Shown one piece after another: positions 35,503 to 64,000 of a stretch of 64,000 nt of DNA (within the stretch, counting starts at the first letter, position 1; every line of letters begins with the position of its first letter). The notes below the pieces were generated by a model, which saw nothing but the letters and a program-made list of their open reading frames with translations, did not search any database and was not told the DNA's origin. Source of the stretch: Heptranchias perlo (Eukaryota); assembly GCF_035084215.1 (NCBI RefSeq), contig NW_027139268.1:372001-436000 (forward strand). Direction: 5' to 3'. A program made the position numbers and the translations under genes.

Positions 35503-35520
35503 ATCCCACCGCTGCCACCA
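35503..35520 (-). other. Primer-binding site, tRNA-Leu
   Basis: Minus strand TGGTGGCAGCGGTGGGAT, an 18-nt complement of the vertebrate tRNA-Leu(AAG/TAG) 3' end, 2 nt from the 5' LTR. Confidence 0.9.
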
Positions 35521-35522
35521 AA

Positions 35523-36194: not shown

Positions 36195-39100
36195 TCGGTA
36201 AACACCGATAGATTTACCCTAATCCCCTCTCTCGGTAAACACTGATAGATTTACCCTAAACCCCTCTCTCAGTAAACATCGATAGATTTACCCTAATCCC
36301 CTCTCCTGGTAAACACCGATAGATTTACCCTAATCCCCTCTCTCGGTAAACATCGATAGATTTACCCTAATCCCCTCTCCTGGTAAACACCGATAGATTT
36401 ACCCAAATCCCCTCTCTCGGTAAACACCGATAGATTTACCCTAATCCCCTCTCTCGGTGAACACCGATAGATTTACCCTAATCCCCTCTCTCGGTAAACA
36501 CCAATAGATTTACCCTAATCCCCTCTCTCGGTGAACACCGATAGATTTACCCTAATGCCCTCTCTCAGGAAACACCGATAGATTTACCCTAATCCCCTCT
36601 CTCGGTAAACACCGATAGATTTACCCTAATCCCCTCTCTCCTGGTAAACACCGATAGATTTACCCCAATCCCCTCTCTCGGTAAACACCGATAGATTTAC
36701 CCTAATCCCCCCTCTCCTGGTAAACACCGATAGATTTACCCTAATCCCCTCTCTCGGTGAACACCGATAGATTTACCCTAATCCCCTCTCTCGGTGAACA
36801 CCGATAGATTTACCCTAATCCCCTCTCTCAGTAAACACCGATTGATTTACCCTAATCCCCTCTCTCCTGGTGAACACCGATAGATTTACCCCAATCCCCT
36901 CTCTCCTGGTGAACACCGATAGATTTACCCTAATCCCCTCTCCTGGTAAACACCGATAGATTTACCCTAATCCACTCTCTCGGTGAACACCATTAGATTT
37001 ACCCTAATCCCCTCTCTCGGTAAACACCAATAGATTTACCCTAATCCCCTCTCTCGCTGAACACCGATAGATTTACCCTAATCCCCTCTCTCGGTAAACA
37101 CCGATAGCTTTACCCTAATCCCCTCTCTCGGTGAACACCGATAGATTGACCCTAGTCCCCTCTCTCGGTGAACACCGATAGATTTACCCTAATCCCCTCT
37201 CTCGGTGAACACCGATAGATTGACCCTAATCCCCTCTCTCGGTGAACACCGATAGATTTACCCTAATCCCCTCTCTCGGTGAACACCGATAGATTTACCC
37301 TAATCCCCTCTCTCGGTGAACACCGATAGATTTACCCTAATCCCCTCTCTCGGTGAACACCGATAGAGTTACCCTAATCCCCTCTCTCGGTGAACACTGA
37401 TAGATTTACCCGAATCCCCTCTCTCGGTAAACACCGATAGATTTAACCTAATCCCCTCTCTCGGTGAACACCGATAGATTTACCCTAATCCCCTCTCTCA
37501 GTGAACACCGATAGATTTACCCCAATCCCCTCTCTCGGTGAACACCGATAGATTTACCCTAATCCCCTCTCTCGGTAAACACTAATAGTTTTACCCTAAT
37601 CCCCTCTCTCGGTAAACACTGATAGATTTACCCTAATCCCCTCTCTCGGTGAACACCGGTAGATTTACCCCAATCCCCTCTCTCGGTAAACACTGATAGA
37701 TTTACCCCATTCCCCTCTCTCGGTAAACATTGATAGATTTACCCTAATCCCCTCTCTCGGTAAACACCGATAGATTGACCCAAATCCCCTCTCTCCTGGT
37801 AAACACCGATAGATTTAACCGAATCCCCTCTCTCGGTAAACACCGATAGATTTACCCTAATCCCCTCTCTCCTGGTAAACACCGATAGATTTACCCCAAT
37901 CCCCTCTCTCGGTAAACACCGATAGATTTACCCCAATCCCCTCTCTCGGTAAACACCGATAGATTTACCCTAATCCCCTCTCTCCTGGTGAACACCGATA
38001 GATTTACCCTAATCCCCTCTCTCGGTGAACACCGATAGATTTACCGTAATCCCCTCTCTCGGTAAACACCGACAGATTTACCCTAATCCCCTCTCTCGGT
38101 GAACACCGATAGATTTACCCTAATCCCCTCTCTCCTGGTAAACACCGATAGATTTACCCTAATCCCCTCTCTCGGTGAACACTGATAGATTTACCCTAAT
38201 CCCCTCTCTCGGTAAACACCGATAGATTTACCCTAATCCCCTCTCTCGGTGAACACCGATAGATTTACCCCAATCCCCTCTCTCGGTGAACACCGATAGA
38301 TTTACCCTAATCCCCTCTCTCGGTAAACACCGATAGATTTACCCTAATCCCCTCTCTCGGTAAACACCGATAGATTTACCCTAATCCCCTCTCTCGGTGA
38401 ACACCGATAGATTGACCCTAATCCCCTCTCTCGGTGAACACCGATAGATTTACCCTAATCCCCTCTCTCGGTGAACACCGATAGATTTACCCTAATCCCC
38501 TCTCTCGGTGAACACCGATAGATTTACCCTAATCCCCTCTCTCGGTGAACACCGATAGAGTTACCCTAATCCCCTCTCTCGGTGAACACTGATAGATTTA
38601 CCCGAATCCCCTCTCTCGGTAAACACCGATAGATTTAACCTAATCCCCTCTCTCGGTGAACACCGATAGATTTACCCTAATCCCCTCTCTCAGTGAACAC
38701 CGATAGATTTACCCCAATCCCCTCTCTCGGTGAACACCGATAGATTTACCCTAATCCCCTCTCTCGGTAAACACTAATAGTTTTACCCTAATCCCCTCTC
38801 TCGGTAAACACTGATAGATTTACCCTAATCCCCTCTCTCGGTGAACACCGGTAGATTTACCCCAATCCCCTCTCTCGGTAAACACTGATAGATTTACCCC
38901 ATTCCCCTCTCTCGGTAAACATTGATAGATTTACCCTAATCCCCTCTCTCGGTAAACACCGATAGATTGACCCAAATCCCCTCTCTCCTGGTAAACACCG
39001 ATAGATTTAACCGAATCCCCTCTCTCGGTAAACACCGATAGATTTACCCTAATCCCCTCTCTCCTGGTAAACACCGATAGATTTACCCCAATCCCCTCTC

Positions 39101-39757
39101 TCGGTAAACACCGATAGATTTACCCCAATCCCCTCTCTCGGTAAACACCGATAGATTTACCCTAATCCCCTCTCTCCTGGTGAACACCGATAGATTTACC
39201 CTAATCCCCTCTCTCGGTGAACACCGATAGATTTACCGTAATCCCCTCTCTCGGTAAACACCGACAGATTTACCCTAATCCCCTCTCTCGGTGAACACCG
39301 ATAGATTTACCCTAATCCCCTCTCTCCTGGTAAACACCGATAGATTTACCCTAATCCCCTCTCTCGGTGAACACTGATAGATTTACCCTAATCCCCTCTC
39401 TCGGTAAACACCGATAGATTTACCCTAATCCCCTCTCTCGGTGAACACCGATAGATTTACCCCAATCCCCTCTCTCGGTGAACACCGATAGATTTACCCT
39501 AATCCCCTCTCTCGGTAAACACCGATAGATTTACCCTAATCCCCTCTCTCGGTAAACACCGATAGATTTACCCTAATCCCCTCTCTCGGTGAACACCGAT
39601 AGATTTACCCTAATCCCCTCTCTCGGTGAACACCGATAGATTTACCCTAATCCCCTCTCTCGGTGAACACCGATAGATTTACCCTAATCCCCTCTCTCGG
39701 TGAACACCGATAGATTTACCCTAATCCCCTCTCTCGGTGAACACCGATAGATTTACC
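36195..39757. repeat. 37-bp satellite variant B, right of the LTR element
   Basis: The array resumes in register after the TSD. Confidence 0.97.
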
Positions 39758-42186: not shown

Positions 42187-42717
42187 TGCTGGCTCTGATC
42201 ACTCTCGATCCCAGAACCGGGCAGTCCAGGCTTGTAGTACCTGAGGACCTGACCATGGTGGACGCCAATGATCTGAGCCAATAACCTAAACAACGTCTGC
42301 CAGGGGTATGAGCAGTGCACCTGCGTTCTGAGCAGCCAGGGATTCACCTCAGGGAATCACTACTGGGAGATGGAGGCGGCCAACAAGACCGACTGGGACT
42401 TGGGACTGGCCCAGGAGACGGCCAACAGGAAGGGGCAGATCACGCTGACCCTCGATTGGGTCGTGGACCATCTGTCAGAGGTACGAGCACATCGAAGGGG
42501 CTCTGACCTCACCCTCCACTGTCCTCAAACTAACAACCAAGCCCAGGAAGGTCAGGGTCTATGAGGGAGGACAGGTGTCCTTTTACAATGCTGATGACAT
42601 GTTCCATCTCTGCACTTTTTCACTCACACGTTCAAAGACAAACTGTTCCCTTTCTTTAATCCTTGGTGGAACAAAAGTAGGAGAAACACGGAACCTCTTT
42701 TAAACGGCGTCATTTGA
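42187..42717 (+). pseudogene. TRIM pseudogene PRY-SPRY (B30.2) terminal exon
   Basis: aaag| acceptor in phase with the 20420 donor gives ILSP-VLALITLDPRT. Further motifs: CVLSSQGFTSGNHYWEME..KTDWDLGLA..NRKG, EGGQVSFYNADDM and KLFPFFNP. TAA at 42282 plus frameshifts. Confidence 0.9.
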
Positions 42718-45644: not shown

Positions 45645-46975
45645 CCAGGTACACCATGGGCTAGATAGAGTGAATCTCCCTCTACACTGTCCCATCAAAC
45701 ACTCCCAGGGCAGGTACAGCATGGGTTAGATACAGAGTAAAGCTCCCTCTACACTGTCCCATCAAACACTCCCAGGCCAGGTACAGCATGGGTTAGATAC
45801 AGAGTAAAGCTCCCTCTACACTGTCCCATCAAACACTCCCAGGGCAGGTACAGCACGGGTTAGATACAGAGTAAAGCTTCCTCTACACTGTCCCATCAAA
45901 CACTCCCAGGGCAGGTACAGCAGGGGTTAGATGCAGAGTAAAGCTCCCTCTGCACTGTCCCATCAAACACTCCCAGGGCAGGTACAGCACGGGTTAGATA
46001 CAGAGTAAAGCTCCCTCTACATTGTCCCATCAAACACTCCCAGGGCAGGTACAGCATGGGTTAGATACAGGGTAAAGCTCCCTCTACACTGTCCCATCAA
46101 ACACTCCCAGGGCAGGTACAGCACGGGTTAGATACAGGGTAAAGCTCCCTCTACACTGTCCCATCAAACACTCCCAGGGCAGGTACAGCAGGGGTTAGAT
46201 GCAGAGTAAAGCTCCCTCTACACTGTCCCATCAAACACTCCCAGGGCAGGTACAGCACGGGTTAGATACAGAGTAAAGCTCCCTCTACATTGTCCCATCA
46301 AACACTCCCAGGGCAGGTACAGCACGGGTTAGATACAGAGTAAAGCTCCCTCTACACTGTCCCATCAAACACTCCCAGGGCAGGTACAGCACGGGTTAGA
46401 TACAGGGTAAAGCTCCCTCTACACTGTCCCATCAAACACTCCCAGGGCAGGTACAGCATGGGTTAGATACAGAGTAAAGCTCCCTCTACACTGTCCCATC
46501 AAACACTCCCAGGGCAGGTACAGCATGGGTTAGATACAGGGTAAAGCTCCCTCTACACTGTCCCATCAAACACTCCCAGGGCAGGTACAGCATGGGTTAG
46601 ATACAGAGTAAAGCTCCCTCTACACTGTCCCATCAAACACTCCCAGGGCAGGTACAGCATGGGTTAGATACAGAGTAAAGCTCCCTCTACACTGTCCCAT
46701 CAAACACTCCCAGGGCAGGTACAGCACGGGTTAGATACAGAGTAAAGCTCCCTCTACACTGTCCCATCAAACACTCCCAGGGCAGGTACAGCACGGGTTA
46801 GATGCAGGGTAAAGCTCCCTCTGCACTGTCCCATCAAACACTCCCAGGGCAGGTACAGCAGGGGTTAGATACAGAGTAAAGCTCCCTCTACACTGTCCCA
46901 TCAAACACTCCCAGGGCAGGTACAGCATGGGTTAGATGCAGGGTAAAGCTCCCTCTGCACTGTCCCATCAAACAT
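45645..46975. repeat. 67-bp minisatellite (CTCCCTCTACACTGTCCCATCAAACACTCCCAGGGCAGGTACAGCATGGGTTAGATACAGAGTAAAG), about 20 copies
   Basis: Direct periodicity, e.g. 45721 versus 45788. Confidence 0.95.
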
Positions 46976-47139
46976 CTGAAGAAGGAGCACGGGTGATATT
47001 CTGGGTGGTCCTGGCACTTACACCAGTTAAGAGTTTGCAACTTCAGGAGAATATGGGAGGAGAATGGAAGAAAATATATCGTTCGTGGAATTAACTCCTG
47101 AAAATGGATCTTGTTGGTCAGCAGGTGAGGAACCTGCTG

Positions 47140-47382
47140 TTCTCTGCTCGTCTCTGACATTGTCTGTCTCTGCTGGACTCTGTCGCATTCTGCTGGTCTC
47201 TGCCAGTCCCTTCTGGTCTCTGATGTTCTCTGCTGGTCACTGCAGAACTCTGCTGGTCTTACTGATCTCTGCCGGTCACTGCAGGACTCTGCCGGTCTCT
47301 GCTCATCACGGCAGGACTCTGCCAGTTTCTACTGGTCTCTGATGGGTTTTGCTGGTCTCTGATGGGCTCTGCTGGTCTCTCC
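47140..47382. repeat. Degenerate 10-bp repeat (GCTGGTCTCT on +) overlapping the MHC I cytoplasmic tail and 3' UTR
   Basis: Ten-base register visible across 47160-47380. Confidence 0.8.
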
Positions 47383-47496
47383 TGTTTTGCCTCTTGCTCC
47401 AGAAGCCAATTCCGACGATGATGCCAAGAAGAGTGAGTGAGACGGCTGCTGCTCCAGTCCCAATCCCCACATTCGTGCCTCCTTCTGTCGCCCTCT
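47306..47496 (-). CDS. MHC class I heavy chain, connecting peptide + TM + cytoplasmic exon
   Basis: tag| acceptor in phase 1 with alpha3. Encodes ERATEGGTN-VGIGTGAAAVSLTLLGIIVGIGFW-SKRQNRRDQQSPSETSKTHQRPVETGRVLP*, a hydrophobic span followed by a basic stop-transfer. Not in the ORF track. Confidence 0.8.
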
Positions 47497-47829
47497 CTAT
47501 TGAATTTTAAAATGATGTTGATCAATAATTATTTCCTAATGATTTCATTAGGTGCTTCATTAAGCTGCACACTGGTACAGTACATGTCTGATAGGGTAAT
47601 GAACAATTAAAAATGGATTGAAACATGCCTAACTGGCTCCATTACAAATAATAAGCAGAATACAACTAGTTACCATTGATTATTCTCAGAAACAGGGCAG
47701 TTCCTGACTAGTTACAGAGTTTAAAGTGCAATTCCTGTACTCAGCAGATTAAATCAACACACGAACCACCTGATATCAGGGATAGAGGCTGCAGAATTAC
47801 ACACTGTAAAATAACAGTGCAATGCCAAG

Positions 47830-48597
47830 GAGGGGAATCTGTTGGCCATTTCTTTACACAGATGATGGTTGCAGATTGCAATGTTTGGCCACAGGGAGTG
47901 GTTGAGACAGAGACCATTGTATGTTTTAAGGGAAGGGTGGCTAAACATTCGAAGCTTAGGGAGATACAGGGCAGTGAGGTTAGTTTGGGATTGATACAGG
48001 GCTATGGGGAGAGAGTGGGGCAGTGGGATTAGTTTGGGATTGATACAGGGCTATGGGGAGAGAGTGGGGCAGTGGGTTTAGTTTGGGATTGATACAGGAC
48101 TATGGGGAGAGAGTGGGGCAGTGGGATTAGTTTGGGATTGATACAGGGCGATGGGGAGAGAGTGGGGCAGTGGGATTAGTTTGGGATTGATGCAGGGCTA
48201 TGGGGAGGGCAGTGGGATTAGTTTGGGATTGATACAGGGCTATGGGGAGATACAGAGCAGTGGGTTTAGTTTGGGATTGATACAGGGCTATGGGGAGAGA
48301 GTGGGACAGTGGGATTAGTTTGGGATTGATACAGGGCTATGGGGAGAGAGTGGGGCAGTGGGATTAGTTTGGGATTGATACAGGGCTATGGGGAGAGAGT
48401 GGGGCAGTGGGATTAGTTTGGGATTGATACAGGGCTATGGGGAGAGAGTGGGGCAGTGGGATTAGTTTGGGATTGATACAGGGCTATGGGGAGAGAGTGG
48501 GGCAGTGGGATTAGTTTGGGATTGATACAGGGCTATGGGGAGAGAGTGGGGCAGTGGGGTTAGTTTGGATTGTGACAGGGCTATGGGGAAAGGGCAG
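47830..48597 (+). repeat. CR1 3' fragment whose end is expanded as a 49-bp minisatellite (about 47965-48597)
   Basis: CR1-like TTCTTTACACAG..GGAGTGGTTGAG leads into the unit GGGATTAGTTTGGGATTGATACAGGGCTATGGGGAGAGAGTGGGGCAGT (period 49). Confidence 0.85.
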
Positions 48598-48774
48598 TCT
48601 CTCCAATTGAAATCCTCCCACTCAGCAGAGGCCAGGGGTTAAATCTGAGACCCTCTGGTCTGTCCGTCTTTGTTCTACATTGGGCAGGTCATTTACCAAT
48701 TGTGCTCTTGGGTAAATTGAAGGGGATTTTGCTCAGTGTAACACCGTGAAAGGTGGGCATGTGCTATTGAAAGA

Positions 48775-50047
48775 GAAAAGGAAGAGGTGTATTTATATAA
48801 CACCTTTCATGAGCTCAGGTTGTCTCAAAGCACTTTACAGCCAATTAAACTATTTTGAAGTGTCGTCACTGTTGTGATGTGGAAAACCCGGCAGCCAATT
48901 TGCGCACAGCAAGATCCCATGACCAGCAATGTGATAATGATCAGATCATTTTTTTATATTCATGTTTATTGAGGGATAAATATTTTCCAGGACACTGGGG
49001 ATAACTCTCCTGCTCATCCTCGAAATAATGTCATGGGATGTTTTACCTCCACCTGAGATGGCAGTTGGGGCCTTGACTTAACATCTCATCCGAAAGCTGG
49101 CACCTCCCACAGTGCAGCACTCCCTCAGTACTGACCCTCCGACAGTGCAGCTCTCCCTCAGTACTGACCCTCCGACAGTATCGCACTCCCTCAGTACTGC
49201 CCCTCCGACAGTGCAGCGCTCCCTCAGTCCTGACCCTCCGACAGTACCGCACTCCCTCAGTACTGACCCTCCGACAGTGCCGCACTCCCTCAGTACTGCC
49301 TCTTTGACAGTGCAGCTCTCCCTCAGTACTGACCCTCCGACAGTGCAGCTCTCCCTCAGTACTGACCCTCCGACAGTGCAGCTCTCCCTCAGTACTGCCC
49401 CTCCGACAGTGCAGCACTCCCTCAGTACTGACCCTCCGACAGTGCAGCTCTCCCTCAGTACTGACCCTCCGACAGTGCAGCGCTCCCTCAGTACTGCCCC
49501 TCCGACAGTGCAGCGCTCCCTCAGTACTGACCCTCCGACAGTGCCGCACTCCCTCAGTACTGACCCTCCCACAGTGCCGCACTCCCTCAGTACTGACCCT
49601 CCGACAGTGCAGCTCTCCCTCAGTACTGACCCTCCGACAGTGCAGCACTCCCTCAGTACTGACCCTCCGTCAGTGCAGCTCTCCCTCAGTACTGACCCTC
49701 CGACAGTGCCGCACTCCCTCAGTACTGACCCTCCGACAGTGCAGCACTCCCTCAGTACTGACCCTCCGACAGTGCAGCACTCCCTCAGTACTGACCCTCC
49801 GTCAGTGCAGCTCTCCCTCAGTACTGACCCTTTGACAGTGCCGCTCTGCCTCAGTCCTGCCCCTTTGACAGTGCAGCTCTCCCTCAGTACTGACCCTCCG
49901 ACAGTGCCGTTCTCCCTCAGTACTGACCCTCCGACAGTGCCGCACTCCCTCAGTACTGACCCTCCGACAGTGCCGTTCTCCCTCAGTACTGACCCTCCGA
50001 CAGTGCCGTTCTCCCTCAGTACTGCCCCTTTGACAGTGCAGCGCTCC
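48775..50047 (-). mobile_element. Deu-domain SINE with an internal 33-bp expansion (49100-50047)
   Basis: Reverse complement of the same SINE body and tail as 44935-45420. Confidence 0.85.
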
Positions 50048-50049
50048 CC

Positions 50050-51515
50050 CGAAGGATGCAGAGACACGGGGAAGGACCCTGCGGCACAGGGAATGACCTT
50101 GAGGCACAGGGAATGACCTCGAGTCACAGGGAATGACCTCGAGTCACAGGGGAGGATCCAGAGAAGTGGGGAAGGACGCAGAGACACAAGGAAGGACCTT
50201 GAGGCACGGCAATGACCCAGAGGCACAGGGAAGGATGCAGAGGCACAGGGAATGACCCTGAGACACAGGGAAGGACCCAGAGGCACGAGGAAGGACCCAG
50301 AGGCACAGGGAAGGATGCAGAGGTACGAGGAATGATCCAGAGGCACGAGGAAGGACCCAGAGGCACAGGGAAGGATGCAGAGGAACGGGGAATGATCCAG
50401 AGGCATGGGGAAGGACCCTGAGACACGGGGAATGATGCAGAGGCACGGGGAATGACCGAGAGGCACGGGGAAGGACCCAGAGGCACGGGGAAGGATCCAG
50501 AGGCACGGGGAAGGATCCAGAGGCACGGGGAAGGATCCAGAGGCACGGGGAAGGATCCAGAGGCACGGGGAAGGACCCAGAGGCACGGGGAAGGACCCAG
50601 AGGCACGGGGAAGGACCCAGAGGCACGGGGAATGACCCAGAGGCACAGGGAATGATCCAGAGGCACATGGAATGACCCAGAGGCACAGGGAATGACCCAG
50701 AGGCACAGGGAAGGATGCAGAGACAGGAGGAAGGATGCAGAGGAACGGGGAATGATCCAGAGGCACAGGGAATGACCCAGAGGCACAGGGAAGGACCCAG
50801 AGGCACAGGGAAGGACCCAGAGGCACAGGGAAGGACGCAGAGGCACGGGGAATGACCCAGAGGCACAGGGAAGGACGCAGAGGCACGGGGAATGACCCAC
50901 AGGCACAGGGAAGGATGCAGAGGCACGAGGAATGATCCAGAGGCACAGGGAAGGACCCAGAGGCACAGGGAAGGATGCAGAGGCACAGGGAAGGATGCAG
51001 AGGCACAGGGAAGGACCCAGAGGCACAGGGAATGATCCAGAGGCACAGGGAATGATCCAGAGGCACGGGGAAGGACCCAGAGGCACAGGGAATGACCCAG
51101 AGGCACAGGGAATGACCCAGAGGCACAGGGAAGGACCCAGAGGCACAGGGAAGGATGCAGAGGCACAGGGAATGATCCAGAGGCACGGGGAAGGACCCAG
51201 AGGCACAGGGAATGATCCAGAGGCACAGGGAATGATCCAGAGGCACGGGGAAGGACCCAGAGGCACAGGGAAAGACCCAGAGGCACAGGGAATGACCCAG
51301 AGGCACAGGGAATGACCCAGAGGCACGGGGAATGACCCAGAGGCACGGGGAATGACCCAGAGGCACGGGGAAGGACCCAGAGGCATGGGGAAGGACCCTG
51401 TGAGCCCCCAAGACACGGGGAAAAGCCCTGCGGCCCTCCCGAGAATCGGGGAAGGACCCAGAGTTCCAGGAAGTACCTCGCGGCCCCCCCGAGACACAGG
51501 GAAAGACCCTGAGGC
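50050..51515. repeat. 20-bp minisatellite AGGCACAGGGAAGGACCCAG, about 70 copies, abutting the alpha3 donor
   Basis: Direct 20-bp periodicity. Confidence 0.95.
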
Positions 51516-51535
51516 CCCCCCGATTTGCCACTCAC

Positions 51536-51808
51536 CCCAGGGTACGTTGATCCCCCGCAGGAGGCTGGCGTGCTCGATATGACAGGAGTAGCTCTTCCTG
51601 TCGTCTCCACTCAGCTCGATCGTTTTCAGTACCCGATAGGTCATATCCTGGTTGGGCAGCACGTCACTGGATTCAATGTCAACGACCTCCTCACCATTCC
51701 CCAACCAAGTCACCTCGATGGCCCAGGGGTAGAACCCCGACACAAGGCAGGAGACCCTTAGCACTCTGTCCCCGTCACTCCTCTTCCCAATAAACACCTC
51801 AGGGGCGA
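51536..51808 (-). CDS. MHC class I heavy chain, alpha3 (Ig C1-set) exon
   Basis: 273 bp, tctcag|...|gtgagt, phase 1-1. VAPEV..VSCLVSGFYPWAIEVTW..VLPNQDMTY..YSCHIEHASL carries the C1-set CxVxGFYP and YxCxxxH motifs. Confidence 0.96.
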
Positions 51809-52019
51809 CTGAGAGATTTAAACAAAGAGTACAATCGGTGACAAGTTCTCTTCTTTTGCCTTCATTTCTTCCCCGCCCACCACCATCAATTTTCTCGGCC
51901 TGAAGGCAGATGACTGATGCTGAGAGACAGCTGGAGTTCACCGGAGTTCAGCTGAGGGGTCACCTGATAGAGGTCGTTAAGATTATGAAAGGGTTTGATA
52001 GGATAGACGTAGGGAAGAT

Positions 52020-53682
52020 GGGCGCTAAATAGGGCCGTGTAGCGCCCGTTGTTTCGGCGCTAGACGGCCTCTCCGACATCCAAGATGGCGTCTTGGATGC
52101 GCACGCACATTTCCAGCGTGACGTGCGCCAGACGCCATCTTGGTATCGGAGTTAGCGCAGGCGCAGATAACGAACGCTGGAATCATGTAAAGTAGGGAGA
52201 AAATGGCTTCAGTCAGTGTGCAACGCTGATTTAAAGTGATAGACACCATTTCGGGACTTAACGCTCAACTCAACGCACAGTCTTAACCCTGACCATCTGA
52301 ACGTGTCTTACAGTTCCTGGAGGACCCCCCACCGGCTCTATTTAAAGGGACCACACAGGATTTACAGGTTAGTTACTGGATTATTGCTTCTGGCTGCCAA
52401 GACATTCATAACTGTTTTCGGAGGTCTCCTACATTTGAATACTAGGACACAGGGATATAGCCAAACATTTAGAGCCAGGATGTGCAGGTGTGAAGTTAGG
52501 AAATGCTTCTTCACACAAAGGGTGGGAGATGTTTGGAACGCTCTTCTGCAGACGGCAGTTGATGCTAGCTCACTTGTGAATGTTAAATCTGAGATTGATA
52601 GATTTCTGTGAACCAAGGGTATTAAGGGATATGGGGCTAAGGTGGGTGTATGGAGTTAGGTCACAGGTCCACCATGATCTCATTGAATGGCGGAACGGGC
52701 TCGAGGGGCTAAATGCCACTGCCACTTGCTGCCTCTTGATATACGTCACCTTCTCCTGTGTCTGGGTGATGTGCCTGTCATGGTTGAATAGCTGCCAGTG
52801 TGTGTGGCCTGTGAGTTGTGGGTGGGCGGCTTGAAACAGTGGTAATGTGTAAGGGTGAGAGGAAGCATCTGATGGGAAGAGTTGAGTACTGATGGAAAGA
52901 GTTTGTTGGTATGTGGGTGATGGGGGTGTAGTGTGTGGAGCAGTTGGTTGGAGACAACACCTGACAGTTGACCTCACTCACCTTGACCACTCATGTCAAA
53001 GCATTGAACTTCTTCCTGCACTGTATCCATGTTCATGATGCTGTGAGCCTGGCATTGACTTCGTCCCCCGCTGCCTCCCACTGCCTTTTGGGTATATGTC
53101 TGGAGGGCCTCTTGCACCCCCCCCTCCCTTCCCCCCACTGTGGATATAGGATGTCCCTCCTTCTGTCCACCTCTTGCACCAAGGTCTCTAGTGCATCAGC
53201 AGAGAACCTTGGTGCATGCACTCTCACAGGCCTGGTACCAACTCAGATCGGCAGATTGGTGAGGTCTGGTGTGCAGATTGGAGGATGTGGGATTTAGTAG
53301 TGTGCAACCTTTATTCAATGTTTTAACATAACTCATCAGTGTGTAAACATAAGGATGGGACCTGCATCGTGTTTTATGTGTGCGATGTCTGATCTCCGTT
53401 CAGACTCCGTGCAGACTGTTATTTTCAGCAAATAACAGGTACCAGCTCCCTTTAAGAGATTTCTGACAAACATCCTCCCTTTAAGAGATTGGACTCCCTC
53501 TGGTGGTGGAAAGTGTGAATTGCATTGATTCCAGGTGCAAGGCCTGGGATGGAACGCTGATCGCAGGTCGGTCCTCGGGTGGGTCGAAACTTGCATCCTG
53601 CCTGCGCCGGGACCATTGGACACGGGGTAAAGCACATCACGCTGCCCCCGCCCAAAAACGGCCACATCCAAATTTTTCCCCC
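52020..53682 (-). mobile_element. PIF/Harbinger-derived DNA element with a Myb/SANT-like pseudo-exon (about 53227-52982), nested in a CR1 3' fragment
   Basis: APRFSADALETLVQEV..WEAAGDEVNA..*TWIQCRKKFN. GGG...CCC ends and a 3-bp GAT duplication (52017-52019 / 53683-53685) that restores CR1 GAAGATGTTTCCACTTG. TIR similarity is weak. Confidence 0.7.
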
Positions 53683-53910
53683 GATGTTTCCACTTGTGGC
53701 AGAGGCCTGAACGAGGGGCCATAAATATAAGAGAGTCACTAATAAATCCAATGGGGAATTCAGGAGAAACGCAGAGAGTGGTTTGAATGTGGAGCTCGCT
53801 CTCACAAGGAGTAGTTGAGGCGAATAGCACAGATGCCTTTAAGGGGAAGCTGGATAAACACATGAGGGAGAAAGGAATAGAAGGATATGCTGATCGGGGG
53901 AGATGAAGTA
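53228..53910 (+). repeat. 683-bp direct repeat, copy 1 (donor)
   Basis: Matches 56176-56858 with about 5 substitutions seen by eye. Confidence 0.95.
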
Positions 53911-54334
53911 GGGAGGGTGCAGCAATAACACTGGCATAGACCTGTTGGGCCGAATGGCCTGTTTCTGTGTTGTAAATTCCATGTAACGGGTCACGTTCCG
54001 GTAACGCACACAAGCACCCAGTGTTCACGAGTGAGCCTTCACAGTGAGGACCAGGAAGCTATTCAACCATGGGGGTATTACAATTTAGTTGAACCCCGTC
54101 CTCACCCGATGTCAACACGCACGGGCTTTCCAGCCGGGGAGACTGAGTAGGTCATCGGATTTAGGTCACCTGCCCGATTATCTCCCCCATCCCCACCCCA
54201 CCCACCCCAAGGGGTACTGAGGCCAGGTGCAGCACCCCTCACTGCTACCCTGTCCGGGAACAGCTGGCTCAGGACAGACTGGGAATATAAACTTTGCCTG
54301 TACGGCACCTCCAGTTCCCGCTCGCTCGAGGTAC

Positions 54335-54610
54335 CTTTCCTCTGTAGTGCTTCTCGCCCAGCCCGAAGGTATATCAGCAGCCACTTCACACAGTCCTTTT
54401 CCAACAGGGTCTTGAAGTATTTGTTCATGAAGGTGTTTGCATTCCACCGGTCTGCTAAAGTCTGGAACTCTGGATTCACCGCAATCCAACTCAATCTGTC
54501 CTTGTCAAAAACATACGCGTCCTCCCCGTCATATCCAAACTTTATAAACCCCTCTGTGGAATTGTCGCTGTTCAGTTCGCAGCCACACATTCCCTGGACA
54601 AAGAAAACAC
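54335..54610 (-). CDS. MHC class I heavy chain, alpha2 exon
   Basis: 276 bp, ttccag|...|gtacct, phase 1-1. VFFVQGMCGCEL..GYDGED..FDKDRLSW..RW..LEKDCVKWLLIYLRAGREALQRK, with the C101-C164 pair. Confidence 0.96.
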
Positions 54611-54663
54611 CTGGAAAAACAACTCAAGTCAATTGAAAATGTGAAAAGGGTTCGATCGGGTAC

Positions 54664-55178
54664 ATACAACAACAACAACTTGCATTTATATAGCGCCTTT
54701 CACGGAGTAAAACATCACAAGGCACTTGACAAACAAAATTTGACACTGAGCCACATAAGGAGATATTAGGACAGGTGACCAAAAGCTTGGACAAAGAGGT
54801 AGGTTTGAAGGAGCATCTTAAAGGAGGAGAGAGAGGCGGAGAGGTTTAGGGAGGGAATTCCAGAGGGACTATTTCCTCAGGTGGGGGAATCAAGATCTTA
54901 GATTTAGAGCCAGGCCACTTAGGAGTGAAATCAGGAAGCACTTTATCACACAAAGGGGAGTGGGAATCAGGAACTCTCTCCCCCAAAAGGCTGTGGGATG
55001 CTGGGGGCCCATTGGAGCTTTCAAGACTGAGATTGTTAAATTTTTGTTAGGTAAGGGTATCGATGGATAGGAAGCAAAGGCTGGAAAATGGAGTTACGGT
55101 GCAGATTAGCCATGATATAAATGAATGGTGGAGCAGGCTCGAGGGGCTGAATGGCCTCTTCCTCTTTCGATGCTCCTA
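54664..55178. mobile_element. L2 3' tail (minus, about 54664-54866) fused to a CR1 3' fragment (plus)
   Basis: Same tail motif as 17613-17820, followed by CR1-type GGAGCAGGCTCGAGGGGCTGAATGGCCT. Confidence 0.7.
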
Positions 55179-55269
55179 AGCAGCTGTGTTACGTTGAGGT
55201 TCCATTTATGTCCTGCTGTCTTGGACTTTAACCTTAGCAATAGGTTAGATTGTCACAGAGAGTCATCGA

Positions 55270-58058
55270 TCTCTGGAATTTCAGTGGGATGAGAACAGAT
55301 CTGGTCCCGGGTAAATTGGAATCAAAGATTGTCAGGCAAAACTGTAATTGAACAGTGGGCGGCCTTTAAGGAGGAGATGATTCGGGTACAGTCTCCACGA
55401 GGGGGAAAGGTCGGGCAACTAAAGCCAGAGCTCCCTGGATGACAAAAGAGATAGAGAGTAAGATGAAACAGAAAAAAGGAGCATATTACAGATGTCAGGT
55501 TGATAATACAAGTGAGAACCAGGCAGAATATAGAAAGTTCAGAGGGGAAGTGAAAAAGGAAATAAGAGGGGCAAAGAGAGAGTCTGAGAATAGACTGGCG
55601 GCCAACATAAAAGGGAATCCAAAAGTCTTCTGCAGGTATCTAAACAGTAAACAGGTAGTAAGAGGAGGGGTGGGGCCGATTAGGGACCATAAAGGAGATC
55701 TACTCATGGAGGCAGAGGAGATGGCCAAGGTACTAAATGAGTAATTTGCATCTGTCTTTACCAAGGAAGAAGATGCTGCCAGAGTCTCAGTAAAGGAAGA
55801 TATAGTTCAGGTACTGGATGGGCTAAAAATTGATAAAGAGGAGGTACTTGAAAGGCTAGCTGTATTTAAAGTAGATCAGTCACCCAGTCCGGATGGGATG
55901 CATCCTAGGTTGCTGAGGGAAGTAAGGGTGGAAATTGCGGAGATACTGGCCATAATCTTCCAAACATCCGTAGATACAGGGGTGGTGCCAGAGGACTGGA
56001 GAATTGCAAAAGTTATATCCTTGTTCAAAAAAAGGTGTAAGGATAAACCCAGCAACTACAGGTCAGTCAGTTTAACCTCAGTGGTGGGGAAACTTTTAGA
56101 AACGATAATCTGGGACAGAATTAACAGTCACTTGGACGAGTGTGAATTGATTAGGGAAAGCCAGCACGGATAAAAAGGCCTGGTACCAACTCAGATCGGC
56201 AGATTGGTGAGGTCTGGTGTGCAGATTGGAGGATGTGGGATTTAGTAGTGCGCAACCTTTATTCAATGTTTTAACATAACTCATCAGTGTGTAAACATAG
56301 GGATGGGACCTGCATCGTGTTTTACGTGTGCGATGTCTGATCTCCGTTCAGACTCCGTGCAGACTGTTATTTTCAGCAAATAACAGGTACCAGCTCCCTT
56401 TAAGAGATTTCTGACAAACATCCTCCCTTTAAGAGATTGGACTCCCTCTGGTGGTGGAAAGTGTGAATTGCATTGATTCCAGGTGCAAGGCCTGGGATGG
56501 AACGCTGATCGCAGGTCGGTCCTCGGGTGGGTCGAAACTTGCATCCTGCCTGCGCCGGGACCATTGGACACGGGGTAAAGCACATCACGCTGCCCCCGCC
56601 CAAAAACGGCCACATCCAAATTTTTCCCCCGATGTTTCCACTTGTGGCAGAGGCCAGAACGAGGGGCCATAAATATAAGAGAGTCACTAATAAATCCAAT
56701 GGGGAATTCAGGAGAAACTCAGAGAGTGGTTTGAATGTGGAGCTCGCTCTCACAAGGAGTAGTTGAGGCGAATAGCACAGATGCCTTTAAGGGGAAGCTG
56801 GATAAACACATGAGGGAGAAAGGAATAGAAGGATATGCTGATCGGGGGAGATGAAGTAACCTGATACAGTTTTTTGATGAGGTAACAGAGAGAGTAGATG
56901 AGGGCAATGCAGTTGATGTGATGTATATGGACTTCCAAAAGGCGTTTGATAAAGTGCCGCATGGTCGGCTTATCATCAAGATTGCGGCCCATGGAATAAA
57001 GGGGGCAGTAGGGACAGGAAACAGAGAGTAGTGGTGAACGGTTGTTTTTCGGACTGGAGGGAGGTGCACAGTAGTGTTCCCCAGGGGTCGGTGCTGGGAC
57101 CACTGCTTTTCTTGATATATATTAATGACTTCAACTTGGGTGTACGGGGCACAATTTCAAAATTTGCAGATGGCACAAAGCTCGGAAAGGTAGTGAACAG
57201 TGAGGATAGTGATAGACTTCAAGAGGATATAGACAGGCTGGTGGAATGGGCAGACACGTGGCAGATGAAATTTAATGCAGAAAAACGCGAAGTGATACAT
57301 TTCGATAGGAAGAACGAGGAGAGGCAATATAAACTAGAGGGCACAACTCTAAAAGGGTACAGGAACAGAGAGATCTGGGGGTATATGTGCACAAATCATT
57401 CAAGGTAGCAGGGCAGGTTGAGAAAGCGGTTAAAAAAACATCCTGGATCCTGGGCTTTTTAAATAGAGGCATAGAGTACAAAAGTATGGAAGTCATGATG
57501 AACCTTTATAAAACACTGGTTCGGCCACAACGGGAGTATTGTGTCCAGTTCTGGGCACCGCACTTTAGGAAGGATGTGAAGGCCTTGGAGAGGGTGCAGA
57601 ATAGATTTACCAGAATGATTCCAGGGATGAGGGACTTTAGTTATGTGGATGGACTGGAGAAGCTAGGGTTGTTCTCCTTGGAACAGAGACGGTTGCGAGG
57701 AGATTTGATCGAGGTGTTTAAAATCATGAAGAAACTATTCCCATTGACAGAAGGGTTAAAAACCAGAGGTCATAGATTTAAGGTGATTGGCAAAAGAAGC
57801 AAAGGTGACTTGAGGAAAAACTTTTTTACACAGCGAGTGGTTAGGATCTGGAATGCACGGCCCGAGGGGGTGGTGGAGGCAGATTCAATCGTGGACTTCA
57901 AAAGGGAACTGGATAAGTAATGAAAGGAAAAAATTTGGAGGGCTACAGGGATAGGGCAGGGGAGTGGGACGAGCTGGATTGCTCTTGGATAGAACCAGCA
58001 CGGACTCGATGGGCCGAATGGCCTCCTTCCGTGCTGTCACCTTTCTGTGATTCGATGA
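55270..58058 (+). mobile_element. CR1 LINE, 5'-truncated and degenerate, interrupted at 56176-56858
   Basis: MHPRLLRE..VPEDWR..NYRSVSL, DFQKAFDKVPH, VPQGSVLGP, KFADGTKL and YCVQFWAP..LRGDLIE, plus a CR1 3' end. Confidence 0.93.
56176..56858 (+). repeat. 683-bp direct repeat, copy 2 (inserted in the CR1 RT)
   Basis: Interrupts CR1 between ESQHG and NLIQFFDEVT. Confidence 0.95.
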
Positions 58059-58509
58059 ACAAGTTGCCTGCATGCCCAGTGTGTGTGGGTGGACTGCAAG
58101 TGTTGGAAAGGGGACTGGCGACCAATAGAAAGTATCTCGAGTTATAGGAGGTGTGTGGGGTTAATGGGGACCAGTGATATCAGACACTGTGGTCTCCTGC
58201 ACCTTCCTCGATTCCCTGGGGGGGGGGGGTCGCAGAGGAATCTCCCAGAGTGTTTGCTTTCCTAACTTGGCCTCAGTTTCATCCTCTTTCTTTGGCCTCT
58301 CCCAGGAGATTGTGTGACTGTGGGAGGGAGAGGGTGCTGATGGTGTGTGTGTGTGTGTTGTTTCACCGTGCCAAGACAGGACAGGCTTGATGGACCCGCC
58401 TGTCCTGATTTCATCTGTTTGTTAGTAACCCTGGCAACGCAGCTTTAGAAGAGGAGAAACAAGTGGCAGCGATGATTTCATTCCAACGTTCAAGGTGCTC
58501 ACATCAAAT

Positions 58510-59020
58510 CCCTCAGTGCTGCCCCTCCCTCAGTGCTGCTCCTCCCTCAGTGCTGCCCCTCCCTCAGTACTGCCCCTCCCTCAGTGCTGCCCCTCCCTCA
58601 GTGCTGCCCCTCCCTCAGTGCTGCCCCTCCCTCAGTGCTGCCCCTCCCTCAGTGCTGCCCCTCCCACAGTGCTGCCCCTCCCTCAGTGCTGCCCCTCCCT
58701 CAGTGCTGCCCCTCCCTCAGTGCTGCCCCTCCCTCAGTGCTGCCCCTCCCACAGTGCTGCCCCTCCCTCAGTGCTGCCCCTCCCTCAGTGCTGCCCCTCC
58801 CTCAGTGCTGCCCCTCCCTCAGTGCTCCCCTCCCTCAGTGCTGCCCCTCCCACAGTGCTGCCCCTCCCACAGTGCTGCCCCTCCCTCAGTGCTGCCCCTC
58901 CCTCAGTGCTGCCCCTCCCACAGTGCTGCCCCTCCCTCAGTGCTGCACTGGGAGTGCCAGCCGAGATTTTGTGCTCCAGTCTCTGGAGTGGGTCTTGAAC
59001 CCACAACCTTCTGAACCAGA
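58510..59020 (-). mobile_element. Deu-domain SINE 5' part with a 17-bp expansion (CTGCCCCTCCCTCAGTG, 58510-58944)
   Basis: SINE head reverse-complementary to 59030-59110, with 17-bp periodicity. Confidence 0.8.
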
Positions 59021-59029
59021 GGTGAGAGT

Positions 59030-62000
59030 AAGAAGGTCGTGGTTTCAGGCCCCACTCCAGAGATTTGAGCGCATAATCTGGGCTGACACTCCAGGGCAGT
59101 ACTGAGGGAGTGATGCATTGTCGGAGGGGCAGTACTGAGGGAGTGCTGCACTGTCGGAGAGGCAGTACTGAGGGAGTGCTGCACTGTCGGAGGGGCAGTA
59201 CTGAGGGAGTGATGCACTGTTGGAGAGGCAGTACTGAGGGAGCGCCGCAATGTCGGAGGGGCAGTACTGAGGGAGTGATGCACTGTCAGAGAGGCAGTAC
59301 TGAGGGAGTGATGCACTGTCAGAGAGGCAGTACTGAGGGAGTGCTGCACTGTCGGAGAGGCAGTACTGAGGGAGTGATGCACTGTTGGAGAGGCAGTACT
59401 GAGGGAGCGCCGCAATGTCGGAGGGGCAGTACTGAGGGAGAGCTGCACTGTCAGAGAGGCAGTACTGAGGGAGTGCTGCACTGTCGGAGAGGCAGTACTG
59501 AGGGAGAGCTGCACTGTCAGAGAGGCAGTACTGAGGGAGTGATGCACTGTCGGAGGGGCAGTACTGAGGGAGTGATGCAATGTCAGAGAGGCAGTACTGA
59601 GGGAGTGCTGCACTGTTGGAGAGGCAGTACTGAGGGAGAGCTGCACTGTCAGAGAGGCAGTACTGAGGGAGTGATGCACTGTCGGAGGGGCAGTACTGAG
59701 CGAGTGATGCACTGTCAGAGAGGCAGTACTGAGGGAGTGATGCACTGTCAGAGAGGCAGTACTGAGGGAGTGATGCACTGACGTAGGGGCAGTACTGAGG
59801 GAGTGCTGCACTGTCGGGGGGCAGGACTGGGGGAGAGCTGCACTGTCAGAGAGGCAGGACTGAGGGAGTGATGCACTGTCGGAGGGGCAGTACTGAGGGA
59901 GTGATGCACTGTCAGAGGGTCAGTACTGAGGGAGAGCTGCACTGACGTAGGGGCAGTACTGAGGGAGTGCTGCACTGTCGGAGGGGCAGTACTGAGGGAG
60001 AGCTGCACTGACGTAGGGGCAGTACTGAGGGAGTGCTGCACTGTCAGAGGGGCAGTACTGAGGGAGCGCTGCACTGTCGGAGGGGCAGTACTGAGGGAGT
60101 GATGCACTGTCGGAGGGGCAGTACTGAGGGAGTGATGCACTGTCAGAGAGGCAGTACTGAGGGAGTGATGCACTGTCGGAGGGGCAGTACTGAGGGAGTG
60201 CTGCACTGACGGAGGGGCAGTACTGAGGGAGTGCTGCACTGACGGAGAGGCAATACTGAGGGAGTGATGCATTGTCGGAGGGGCAGTACTGAGGGAGTGA
60301 TGCACTGACGGAGGGGCAGTACTGAGGGAGTGCTGCACTGACGGAGGGGCAGTACTGAGGGAGTGCTGCACTGACGGAGGGGCAGTACTGAGGGAGTGAT
60401 GCACTGACGGAGGGGCAGTACTGAGGGAGTGCTGCACTGTCGGAGGGGCAGTACTGAGGGAGTGATGCACTGACGGAGGGGCAGTACTGAGGGAGTGCTG
60501 CACTGACGGAGGGGCAGTACTGAGGGAGTGATGCATTGTCGGAGAGGCAGTACTGAGGGAGTGATGCATTGTCGGAGAGGCAATACTGAGGGAGTGATGC
60601 ATTGTCGGAGAGGCAGTACTGAGGGAGTGATGCATTGTCGGAGAGGCAGTACTGAGGGAGTGATGCATTGTCGGAGAAGCAGTACTGAGGGAGTGATGCA
60701 TTGTCGGAGAGGCAGTACTGAGGGAGTGATGCATTGTCGGAGGGGCAGTACTGAGGGAGTGATGCAATGTCGGAGGGTCAGTACTGAGGGAGTGATGCAC
60801 TGTTGGAGAGGCAGTACTGAGGGAGTGATGCACTGTCGGAGGGGCAGTACTGAGGGAGTGATGCACTGTCGGAGGGGCAGTACTGAGGGAGTGATGCACT
60901 CTCGGAGAGGCAGTACTGAGGGAGTGATGCATTGTCGGAGAGGCAGTACTGAGGGAGTGATGCATTGTCGGAGGGGCAGTACTGAGGGAGTGATGCACTG
61001 TGGGAGGGGCAGTACTGAGGGAGTGATGCATTGTCGGAGAGGCAGTACTGAGGGAGTGATGCATTGTCGGAGAGGCAGTACTGAGGGAGTGATGCATTGT
61101 CGGAGAGGCAGTACTGAGGGAGTGATGCATTGTCGGAGGGGCAGTACTGAGGGAGTGATGCATTGTCGGAGGGTCAGTACTGAGGGAGTGATGCACTGTT
61201 GGAGAGGCAATACTGAGGGAGTGATGCATTGTCGGAGAGGCAGTACTGAGGGAGTGATGCATTGTCGGAGAGGCAGTACTGAGGGAGTGATGCATTGTCG
61301 GAGAGGCAGTACTGAGGGAGTGATGCATTGTCGGAGGGGCAGTACTGAGGGAGTGATGCATTGTCGGAGGGGCAGTACTGAGGGAGTGCTGCACTGACGG
61401 AGAGGCAATACTGAGGGAGTGATGCATTGTCGGAGGGGCAGTACTGAGGGAGTGATGCACTGACGGAGGGGCAGTACTGAGGGAGTGCTGCACTGACGGA
61501 GGGGCAGTACTGAGGGAGTGCTGCACTGACGGAGGGGCAGTACTGAGGGAGTGATGCACTGACGGAGGGGCAGTACTGAGGGAGTGCTGCACTGTCGGAG
61601 GGGCAGTACTGAGGGAGTGATGCACTGACGGAGGGGCAGTACTGAGGGAGTGCTGCACTGACGGAGGGGCAGTACTGAGGGAGTGATGCATTGTCGGAGA
61701 GGCAGTACTGAGGGAGTGATGCATTGTCGGAGAGGCAATACTGAGGGAGTGATGCATTGTCGGAGAGGCAGTACTGAGGGAGTGATGCATTGTCGGAGAG
61801 GCAGTACTGAGGGAGTGATGCATTGTCGGAGAAGCAGTACTGAGGGAGTGATGCATTGTCGGAGAGGCAGTACTGAGGGAGTGATGCATTGTCGGAGGGG
61901 CAGTACTGAGGGAGTGATGCATTGTCGGAGGGTCAGTACTGAGGGAGTGATGCACTGTTGGAGAGGCAGTACTGAGGGAGTGATGCACTGTCGGAGGGGC

Positions 62001-63200
62001 AGTACTGAGGGAGTGATGCACTGTCGGAGGGGCAGTACTGAGGGAGTGATGCACTCTCGGAGAGGCAGTACTGAGGGAGTGATGCATTGTCGGAGAGGCA
62101 GTACTGAGGGAGTGATGCATTGTCGGAGGGGCAGTACTGAGGGAGTGATGCACTGTGGGAGGGGCAGTACTGAGGGAGTGATGCATTGTCGGAGAGGCAG
62201 TACTGAGGGAGTGATGCATTGTCGGAGAGGCAGTACTGAGGGAGTGATGCATTGTCGGAGAGGCAGTACTGAGGGAGTGCTGCACTGTCGGAGGGGCAGT
62301 ACTGAGGGAGTGATGCACTGTCGGAGAGGCAGTACTGAGGGAGTGATGCATTGTCGGAGAGGCAGTACTGAGGGAGTGATGCATTGTCGGAGGGGCAGTA
62401 CTGAGTGAGTGATGCATTGTCGGAGGGGCAGTACTGAGGGAGTGATGCATTGTCGGAGAGGCAATACTGAGGGAGTGATGCATTGTCGGAGGGACAGTAC
62501 TGAGGGAGTGATGCATTGTCGGAGAGGCAGTACTGAGGGAGTGCTGCACTGTCGGAGGGGCAGTACTGAGGGAGTGATGCACTGTCGGAGAGGCAGTACT
62601 GAGGGAGTGATGCATTGTCGGAGAGGCAGTACTGAGGGAGTGATGCATTGTCGGAGGGGCAGTACTGAGGGAGTGATGCATTGTCGGAGGGGCAGTACTG
62701 AGGGAGTGATGCATTGTCGGAGAGGCAATACTGAGGGAGTGATGCATTGTCGGAGAGGCAATACTGAGGGAGTGATGCATTGTCGGAGGGACAGTACTGA
62801 GGGAGTGATGCATTGTCGGAGAGGCAGTACTGAGGGAGTGCTGCACTGTCGGAGGGGCAGTACTGAGGGAGTGCTGCATTGTCGGAGGGGCAGTACTGAG
62901 GGAGTGCTGCACTGTCGGAGATGCCGTCCTTCAGATGAGACGTTAAATCGAGGCCCCGTCTTCCTGTTCAAACGAACATAAAAAGAACCAATTGCTCCCA
63001 TTTCTCCCTCAATCCACACCAATAAAAACAGATGAACAAATCAATCATCTCATTGCCATTTGCTGTGCTGAAAATGTCTGCCATGTTACTCCCAGATAGT
63101 GCCAATGACCAGGTCATCCCAAGTCATTTAATGGGTGTAAAGTGGTTCGGGACATTTCTCCGAGACAGGATAAGGCTCTATATGGATACAAATCCTTTCC
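59030..63200 (+). mobile_element. Deu-domain SINE with a 3.8-kb internal 33-bp expansion (59095-62920, about 115 copies)
   Basis: Head (..CCACTCCAGAGATTTGAGCGCATAATCTGGGCTGACACTCC), array, then GCCGTCCTTCAGATGAGACGTTAAATCGAGGCCCC and a degenerate tail. Confidence 0.88.
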
Positions 63201-63243
63201 TCCTGTCAGTCGATAGCTGCACCGAATCTGTGAGGATACTCAC

Positions 63244-63504
63244 TCGAGGCACCGTGTTGCTGTCGGTAAAATATCTCGGCGTTTCCTCTGACCAGACCAT
63301 GGAACCCCGCCATTGTGATGGCGATGGCGTCCCAGTGATGGTTGTCGAAGGAGTCGGCCATCCACTGCTGTCTGGGCACAGTCCGCTGAAGGGTGCTGTC
63401 GAAATACACTATCTCATAGTCATCGAGCATCGCGACCAAGCTGTACTCGGGCATCTCGGCCCCGCCACGGCTCAGTATGTAGTAAAATGCGAGGATGTGG
63501 AAAT
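63244..63504 (-). CDS. MHC class I heavy chain, alpha1 exon
   Basis: 261 bp, ctgcag|...|gtgagt, phase 1-1. DFHILAFYY..PEYSLVAMLDDYEIVYFDS..VPRQQWM..HWD follows the alpha1 pattern (H3, DD..YxDS, PRxxW, W60). Confidence 0.94.
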
Positions 63505-63591
63505 CTGCAGGATCACAGACAGAAACCAGTCTCAAAAATGACGTTAATCATAAGTAACTCAAAGTGGAAACGGCTAATGCTGAGCCTGGTT

Positions 63592-64000
63592 AGACCATAA
63601 GACCATAAGAGATAGCAGCAGGAGTAGGCCATTCAGCCCCTCGAGCCTGCTCCGCCATTCAATGAGATCATGGCTGATCTGATTTTTACCTCAACTCCAC
63701 TTTCCCGCCCTTTCCCCATATCGTTTGACTCCCTTGCTGATCAAAAATTTGTCTAACTCAGCCTTGAATGTGTTCAATGACTCCACAGCTTTTTGGGATA
63801 AAGAATTCCAAAGATTCACAACCCTCTGGGAGAAGAAATTCCTCCTCATTTCCGTCTTAAACGGGCAACCCCTTATTCTGAGACTATGCCCCCTAGTTTT
63901 AGATTCCCCCATGAGGGGTAACGTCCTCTCAGCATCTACCCTATCGAGTCCCCTCAGAATCTTGTATTTTTCATAAGATCTCCTCTCATTCTTCTAAACT
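63592..64000 (-). mobile_element. CR1 LINE 3' end, running off the right edge
   Basis: TRGHSLRI..MRRNFFSQRVVNLWNSL, with a (CATAAGA)n tail at about 63592-63612. Confidence 0.9.

Follow-up and report, generated by a model that had tools for sequence, protein, structure and literature searches.

The 64,000-nucleotide stretch of sevengill shark (Heptranchias perlo) DNA analyzed here, contig NW_027139268.1 from 372,001 to 436,000 and hereafter called the window, contains one class I gene, and its product is a class I heavy chain of the major histocompatibility complex (MHC). Judged by sequence comparison, the gene is best explained as a copy belonging to an old non-classical class I lineage of elasmobranchs that is paralogous to UGA. 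We use "X" as a working name for this lineage. Its members have a class I fold, have lost the classical peptide anchors, carry a hydrophobic and conserved groove, form their own clade beside UGA and UFA, and lack both the N86 glycosylation site and a tyrosine-based tail motif. We infer from these features that X binds lipid. X is a real and conserved lineage, the third in the CD1-like clade of sharks and probably one still without a name.

Results

The window gene encodes a class I heavy chain

The gene lies on the minus strand, and splice reading resolved four exons: alpha1 (63504-63244, 261 nt; encoding F7, H59, T66, F70, N77 and Q84), alpha2 (54610-54335, 276 nt; encoding G97, C99, the C101-C164 pair, A123, L143, R146, W147 and L159), alpha3 (51808-51536, 273 nt; an Ig C1-set domain), and a last exon (47496-47306) for the connecting peptide, the transmembrane (TM) helix and a short cytoplasmic tail ending at a TGA stop. 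The first two exons are also supported by alignment and Pfam, and the third by Pfam. As the initial annotation had claimed, the four exons join in frame without a stop (332 codons), and each of the three introns begins with a GT donor, ends with an AG acceptor and is in phase 1. Pfam MHC_I matched alpha2 with an E-value of 1.8e-18 and C1-set matched alpha3 at 1.6e-16, and the MHC_I match to alpha1 (3.9e-6) fell marginally short of the curated cut-off. The product has an alpha1-alpha2 platform, the C101-C164 pair, a C1-set alpha3 domain, a TM segment and phase-1 exons, as expected of a class I heavy chain. W-category molecules have a class II-type two-chain layout; no such layout was seen in this single chain of alpha1, alpha2 and alpha3, judged from its exons.

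A RefSeq protein of H. perlo matches the alpha1 exon at 100% identity. Over its full overlap with P0007 (XP_067834387.1), which begins at an internal Met, the joined protein is identical at 316 of 316 residues, and its identity to the ten remaining proteins of the same H. perlo cluster is 96.8-99.4%. RefSeq labels these proteins only as "class I-related gene protein-like".

X has lost the peptide anchors and carries a hydrophobic groove

We compared residues in a 51-protein alignment, with HLA numbering offsets set by hand from the aligned HLA-A2 rows. From the window alone it had been proposed that the protein carries F7, H59, Q84, A123, L143, R146 and L159 beside retained W147 and Y171, that it lacks the N86 glycan, and that it has an NST sequon in alpha2, an extra Cys99 and the beta2-microglobulin (beta2m) contacts Q96 and D122; the alignment confirmed every one of these assignments. 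The window protein keeps two of nine peptide-terminus anchors, W147 and Y171, and anchor loss was seen in all 14 scored orthologs of the lineage. X rows keep one or two of the nine, compared with seven in the UDA rows and eight or nine in UAA. Fifteen positions are identical in all 14 X rows, namely H59, T66, N77, Q84, V95, G97, C99, A123, L143, R146, Y155, F156, L159, D163 and Y171. The N86 sequon is present in 9/9 UGA rows and 0/14 X rows, and the alpha2 sequon near position 108 is found in 14/14 X rows. The beta2m-contact residues Y35, R48 and Q96 are kept throughout X, and D122 in 13 of the 14 rows. Cys99 occurs in all 14 X proteins and in none of the 37 others. The window protein has five cysteines, four of which form the two canonical pairs, leaving Cys99 without an intrachain partner. 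An extra unpaired Cys near position 174 is present in most X orthologs (P0003, P0004, P0016, P0018, P0021-P0025 and P0182) and is missing from H. perlo.

Groove hydropathy was averaged across 36 positions that we take to line the pockets. The X mean of 1.52 (1.30-1.70) is the highest among the 51 proteins scored, followed by UGA at 0.79, UFA at 0.57, UAA at -0.10 and UDA at -0.57. Every X row tops every other row, the non-X maximum being 0.94, so the hydrophobic groove first noticed by eye is borne out. X and UGA also share an alpha1-helix motif and 12 residues that are rare in 26 other rows, including G97, M152, F156, L159 and D163.

X forms a distinct clade next to UGA and UFA

Trees were built from 51 of 214 complete ectodomains, with X represented by one row per species (14 rows), UGA by nine rows and the other groups by representatives. 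The labels UFA (2 rows), UDA, UCA/UEA, UAA, MR1-like and Z-like were assigned by eye against the PMC10751288 supplement and PDB rows, and the trees held no CD1 sequences. X formed one clade with all 14 rows (support 100/100) and UGA another with its nine (100/99). The grouping of X with UGA and UFA was supported at 99/97 with full ectodomains, at 97 with alpha1-alpha2 alone and at 98 in the alpha2 tree. It also survived removal of 45 groove columns (97/91), and therefore does not merely reflect common hydrophobicity.

X is present in 16 shark and ray species, with XP_041068264, XP_038671277 and XP_051899694 among its proteins. Its members are 68-79% identical to the query across alpha1-alpha2, apart from one internally shortened model at 55%, and the UGA group P0026-P0029 is 45-48% identical. 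By domain, X shares 41/39/45% identity with UGA and 33/22/37% with UFA, compared with 70-75% among UGA orthologs. Because both X and UGA contain sharks and rays, the duplication that separated them should be older than the shark-ray split. Non-exhaustive sequence searches turned up no holocephalan or bony-vertebrate members of X.

Several other placements were also compared. A joint clade with classical UAA was rejected by the approximately unbiased (AU) test (p = 0.0002; three UAA/UBA-type rows); X neither clusters with UAA nor retains its anchors, and the earlier proposal of a non-classical class I that presents no peptide, or does not present at all, is supported. Grouping with P0061, the one UCA/UEA-type stand-in compared, was rejected at p = 0.016. 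UEA is not known from rays. In alpha2, X retains a Cys pair that is missing from the UCA query rows. The UDA rows, with their seven anchors, form a separate clade, as do the two eye-labeled UFA-type rows (8GM8), which share only 22% alpha2 identity with X. X is not a UGA ortholog either, since the two are reciprocal clades and H. perlo owns a UGA (P0026/P0178); against 9CH4, the UGA ortholog P0028 scored 460 bits and X 241 bits. A mosaic origin, with UGA-like alpha1 and MR1-like alpha2, was set aside because the alpha2 tree still unites X with UGA and UFA (98). Finally, Callorhinchus milii "UGA" was considered as a holocephalan ortholog of X and grouped with neither X nor UGA in the trees. The "UGA" label that the PMC10751288 supplement gives to the C. 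milii protein (P0069, P0133 and P0190) may denote a different lineage. The earlier choice between a named shark lineage and a new one is decided for a lineage of its own beside UGA and UFA, unlike any named query row compared.

Comparison with known class I systems

Among PDB sequences, the window protein matches 9CH4 best, at 241 bits; the title of that entry reads "shark nonclassical MHC class I, UGA". With alpha1 alone, E-values were 1e-22 for UGA 9CH4, 5e-10 for UFA 8GM8 and 3e-9 for UAA 6LUP. UGA is the closest system in both sequence and fold. It shares with X the alpha1-helix motif, G97, M152, Y155, F156, L159 and D163, and its gene apparently neighbors X in at least three species. X differs in having H59, Q84 and C99 where UGA has Y59, Q/K/R84 and F99, in lacking the N86 sequon, Cys31 and YxxPhi tail of UGA, and in its more hydrophobic groove. 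UFA belongs to the same wider clade, has G97 and has also lost the classical anchors, but its alpha2 is far more remodeled, its domain identities to X are lower and its structural match is weaker (Z 22.4). By eye, X resembles CD1 in its hydrophobic groove, Leu at 159-160 and Gly97 (human row), yet identity to chicken CD1-1 and human CD1a-e is only about 21-26%. MR1 is the origin of the RefSeq label and the best alpha2 match, but the columns for its R9 and Schiff-base lysine hold Y and T in X, and the eye-labeled MR1-like row does not group with X in the tree. Classical UAA (6LUP) shares the domain layout, exon phases, Q96/D122 beta2m contacts, W147 and Y171, and differs in its eight or nine anchors, compared with the two of near-monomorphic X, and in the rejected joint clade.

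X and UGA are probable neighbors, and no name for X was found

In H. perlo, X (XP_067834248) and UGA (...249/250) have adjoining accessions on contigs of equal size (529,794 bp). The same holds in little skate, with consecutive accessions (X XP_055486430, UGA ...429; 127,421 bp), and in Scyliorhinus torazame, with near-consecutive accessions (X XP_072331294, UGA ...298) on equal-sized contigs. The chromosomes that carry the two genes are likewise of equal size in S. canicula and in the white and basking sharks. Accession order and contig sizes suggest that X and UGA are an old tandem pair.

All surveyed elasmobranch class Ib genes are located in the MHC, according to PMC10751288. In the 20 of 45 table rows examined from that source, the label is only "MHC-Ib", so X loci are probably included there with their lineage unnamed. 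The query rows in its supplement comprise UAA, UAA-2, UBA, UCA, UDA, UFA, UGA and UHA plus outgroups; the alpha1 letters of the nurse-shark UGA and UFA rows agree with the 9CH4 and 8GM8 chains, and the class I queries there, 28 rows in all, include none that X resembles by eye. Our literature search, whose reach did not extend to the UFA/UGA primary paper or the UEA paper, found no description of or name for X.

The platform is conserved and the tail lacks sorting motifs

Identity within X is 73% in alpha1, 77% in alpha2 and 66% in alpha3, and 20/36 groove positions are invariant compared with 26/91 positions in alpha3 (p = 0.007). A platform more conserved than alpha3 is the reverse of what characterizes a polymorphic peptide presenter. 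Among the 11 H. perlo X proteins, alpha1 shows two singleton changes, alpha2 is without any, and alpha3 varies at four sites. Within this one assembly, X is therefore near-monomorphic and does not show the polymorphic groove of classical UAA.

The tail of the window gene contains neither a YxxPhi nor an acidic dileucine motif. YxxPhi was found in 0/16 X proteins parsed (1 of 17 was unparsed) and in 7/10 UGA proteins. It ends the UGA tails of skate (P0207, P0209) and shark (P0178, P0184, P0188), and is missing from H. perlo UGA isoform P0026. Human CD1b has the identical motif to skate UGA, YQNI; among human CD1 proteins, lack of a tyrosine tail motif is a CD1a trait. A degenerate 10-nt repeat builds the cytoplasmic tail and the start of the 3' untranslated region (UTR) of the window gene (47180-47380, minus strand). 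The tails of relatives span about 20 to 100 residues. Some relatives translate the repeat as a longer tail, and H. perlo copy P0012 translates it in a different frame.

We modeled copy P0010, which is 98.5% identical to the window protein, from a 105-row alignment. An earlier model from a 17-row alignment was poor, with a predicted local distance difference test (pLDDT) value of 60.5 and a predicted template modeling (pTM) score of 0.44. The P0010 model (pLDDT 90.6, pTM 0.82) is a confident class I fold. In a fold search against 40%-cluster representatives, UGA ranked first (Z 27.7, root-mean-square deviation 2.4, 262 residues aligned) and chicken CD1-1 second (Z 25.5, 2.4, 255 aligned).

Leader, transcript and copy number

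Upstream of alpha1, the window extends for 496 nt (63505-64000, minus strand), which represent the 3' end of intron 1 and consist of high-copy repeat from about 63590. A tblastn search with a full 350-aa relative found no leader exon in these 496 nt. A leader is carried by five of the 11 clustered proteins, and P0007 and four others begin at an internal Met. In many of the RefSeq models of X, the leader is implausible or missing.

One sequencing-run contig bears on the transcript. The type of this run, X1, was guessed as RNA; it comes from one sample, and the letters flanking the aligned part of the contig were unseen. The contig is 1438 nt long, aligns only to window 63241-63505 with one difference, which is synonymous, and spans alpha1 end to end. 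Its 3-nt overhang is identical to the start of alpha2, whose first three bases match those of the donor. The remaining 1088 nt correspond in length to the alpha2, alpha3 and TM exons (740 nt) plus 348 nt, which would end 16 nt within a 67-bp satellite; this length gives a probable 3' UTR at 46958-47305 (minus strand). On the 5' side, 89 nt would accommodate a 52-nt coding leader and 37 nt more. The contig, probably RNA, is shaped like a spliced mRNA that includes a leader, and may derive from another copy. Two further runs from that sample, X2 and X3, gave no cover of alpha1 and are uninformative on expression or tissue pattern. The gene had been described as intact, which holds for its four exons and, given the spliced RNA-like contig, for the lineage; this copy may lack its leader.

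The H. perlo X cluster comprises 11 proteins under 12 RefSeq accessions, none labeled as an isoform. The copies are on contigs of at least seven sizes (76-530 kb), with three each on contigs of 463,596 and 449,286 bp. Other species have one X gene each, or two in Pristiophorus; UGA in H. perlo is a single gene that has two isoforms. X has likely undergone recent segmental amplification in H. perlo, and part of the apparent expansion may be assembly duplication.

Surroundings of the gene

Tandem satellite with periods of 17-67 bp fills about two thirds of the window (1-14084, 20413-30027, 36195-39757 and 59094-62920), one part of which is a 3.8-kb array in the intron after alpha1. These arrays might promote unequal crossing-over and could also disturb assembly. 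An element of about 6.2 kb bounded by long terminal repeats (30027-36195) lies within a 37-bp satellite array. Its two 673-nt direct repeats are 99.7% identical, consistent with recent insertion or recent homogenization, and an 18-nt stretch adjoining one of them (35503-35520, minus strand) is presumably tRNA-like and a candidate primer-binding site. A 683-nt segment is found in both intron 2 and intron 3 (53228-53910 and 56176-56858, 99.3% identity), and its upstream copy splits a remnant of a LINE reverse transcriptase. A disrupted TRIM- or butyrophilin-type B30.2/SPRY exon, with shifted frames, lies 4.6 kb downstream of the class I stop (42277-42700, plus strand); its two Pfam SPRY matches (E = 0.009 and 0.002) are below cut-off.

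Discussion

We consider it probable, from sequence, that X is a beta2m-associated, lipid-binding class Ib molecule that bypasses peptide loading and endosomal sorting and complements UGA. The heavy chain would pair with beta2m in the endoplasmic reticulum, leaving the peptide-loading pathway unused, and its groove would be filled by a lipid or fatty-acyl ligand. Gly97 would provide space beneath the helices, F, L, I, V and M residues would line the cavity, and the invariant polar residues H59, T66, N77, Q84, R146, Y155 and D163 may grip a head group or be turned toward a receptor. Lacking an endosomal motif, X could load self lipids in the secretory route or exchange them at the surface, as is the case for human CD1a. 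The complex might then be displayed to an invariant T-cell or natural killer-type receptor, with labor split between X and UGA, whose tail is of the CD1-type YxxPhi kind.

UFA and UGA bind CD1d-like lipids according to a personal communication in PMC12562908; this second-hand claim is the sole support for the ligand of the clade. Several observations weigh against the lipid-binding interpretation. In the alpha3-only tree X joins neither UGA nor UFA, and X+UGA to the exclusion of UFA is weak (66/60, or 87/82 without groove columns). With alpha2 alone, MR1 (79 bits) outscores UGA (66 bits). Groove positions are not significantly more invariant than the rest of alpha1-alpha2 (20/36 versus 56/143, p = 0.09). 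In the fold search, the classical class I molecules of duck and chicken, together with MR1, come within 1 Z of UGA, so this search supports the fold and not the ligand; UFA (Z 22.4) and CD1d (22.9) both score below ZAG (25.0), HFE (24.7) and a marsupial class I. Bulky F7, Y9, F70 and F156 could also occupy the cavity instead of lining it.

A rival explanation is a non-presenting molecule in the manner of ZAG, EPCR, HFE or FcRn, in which lipid is structural or the groove closed and the platform docks a fixed protein partner. The strong conservation of the entire platform through sharks and rays fits such a role, as do the missing sorting motif, the Z values of ZAG and HFE against the model, and the Gly that human FcRn likewise has at 97 in the alignment. 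We nevertheless regard it as unlikely, given that X groups with UGA and UFA and has UGA's inward-facing residues, and that many-copy amplification would seem commoner for immune ligands than for housekeeping receptors. Covalent capture appears quite improbable. Here the invariant Cys99 on the groove floor would bind an acyl chain or electrophile, as a thiol counterpart of the MR1 lysine; its confinement to X, its lack of an intrachain partner and the alpha2 match to MR1 are in keeping with this idea. However, no catalytic neighbor was identified, the R9 and lysine columns of MR1 are Y and T in X, Cys99 also occurs in ordinary peptide-binding HLA alleles, and a small residue beside Gly97 may just widen the cavity.

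Two further alternatives leave lipid binding aside. The lineage may be functional while this copy is leaderless or an assembly duplicate, possibly non-functional, and the dozen copies overcounted. That P0007 and four of its relatives begin at an internal Met, that all copies are on contigs of 76-530 kb, that the window is mostly satellite and that the RNA-like contig differs from this copy by one synonymous base all agree with such an account. We find it doubtful, because the gene keeps four intact exons and every splice site, five of the 11 clustered proteins do have a leader, and H. perlo UGA forms a single gene with two isoforms. Moreover, three accessions on each of two contigs, together with copies that differ at several residues, go beyond what haplotype duplication alone yields. 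There is a somewhat greater chance, still short of even, that X has already been named as a second UGA gene or a UEA sublineage. The papers beyond the reach of our literature search, on UEA and on 8GM8/9CH4, leave room for this, and PMC12562908 describes UFA and UGA as "single- or low-copy". Yet X and UGA share only 39-45% identity by domain, far from the 70-75% among UGA orthologs; the PMC10751288 query rows include nothing like X by eye; and grouping with the UCA/UEA-type stand-in was rejected.

A lipid-binding X that complements UGA could be part of a broader arrangement, a three-member CD1-like system in place since the origin of sharks and rays, with UGA endosomal, X secretory or at the surface, Cys99 possibly covalent, and a roughly twelvefold recent expansion in H. 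perlo. The full scheme has a small chance of being correct. If true, the division of labor among shark CD1-like genes would resemble that among mammalian CD1 isoforms. X would still be a variant of an already known kind of molecule, and its apparent multiplication in one deep-branching shark stands out, since the gene is present elsewhere in single copy. The relative age of lipid and peptide presentation is an open question, for which UFA and UGA are the newest evidence. A third conserved lineage beside UGA, with opposite trafficking signals and other groove chemistry, would allow a paired comparison with the solved 9CH4 structure, and the idea of divided labor becomes testable through the X-UGA pair.

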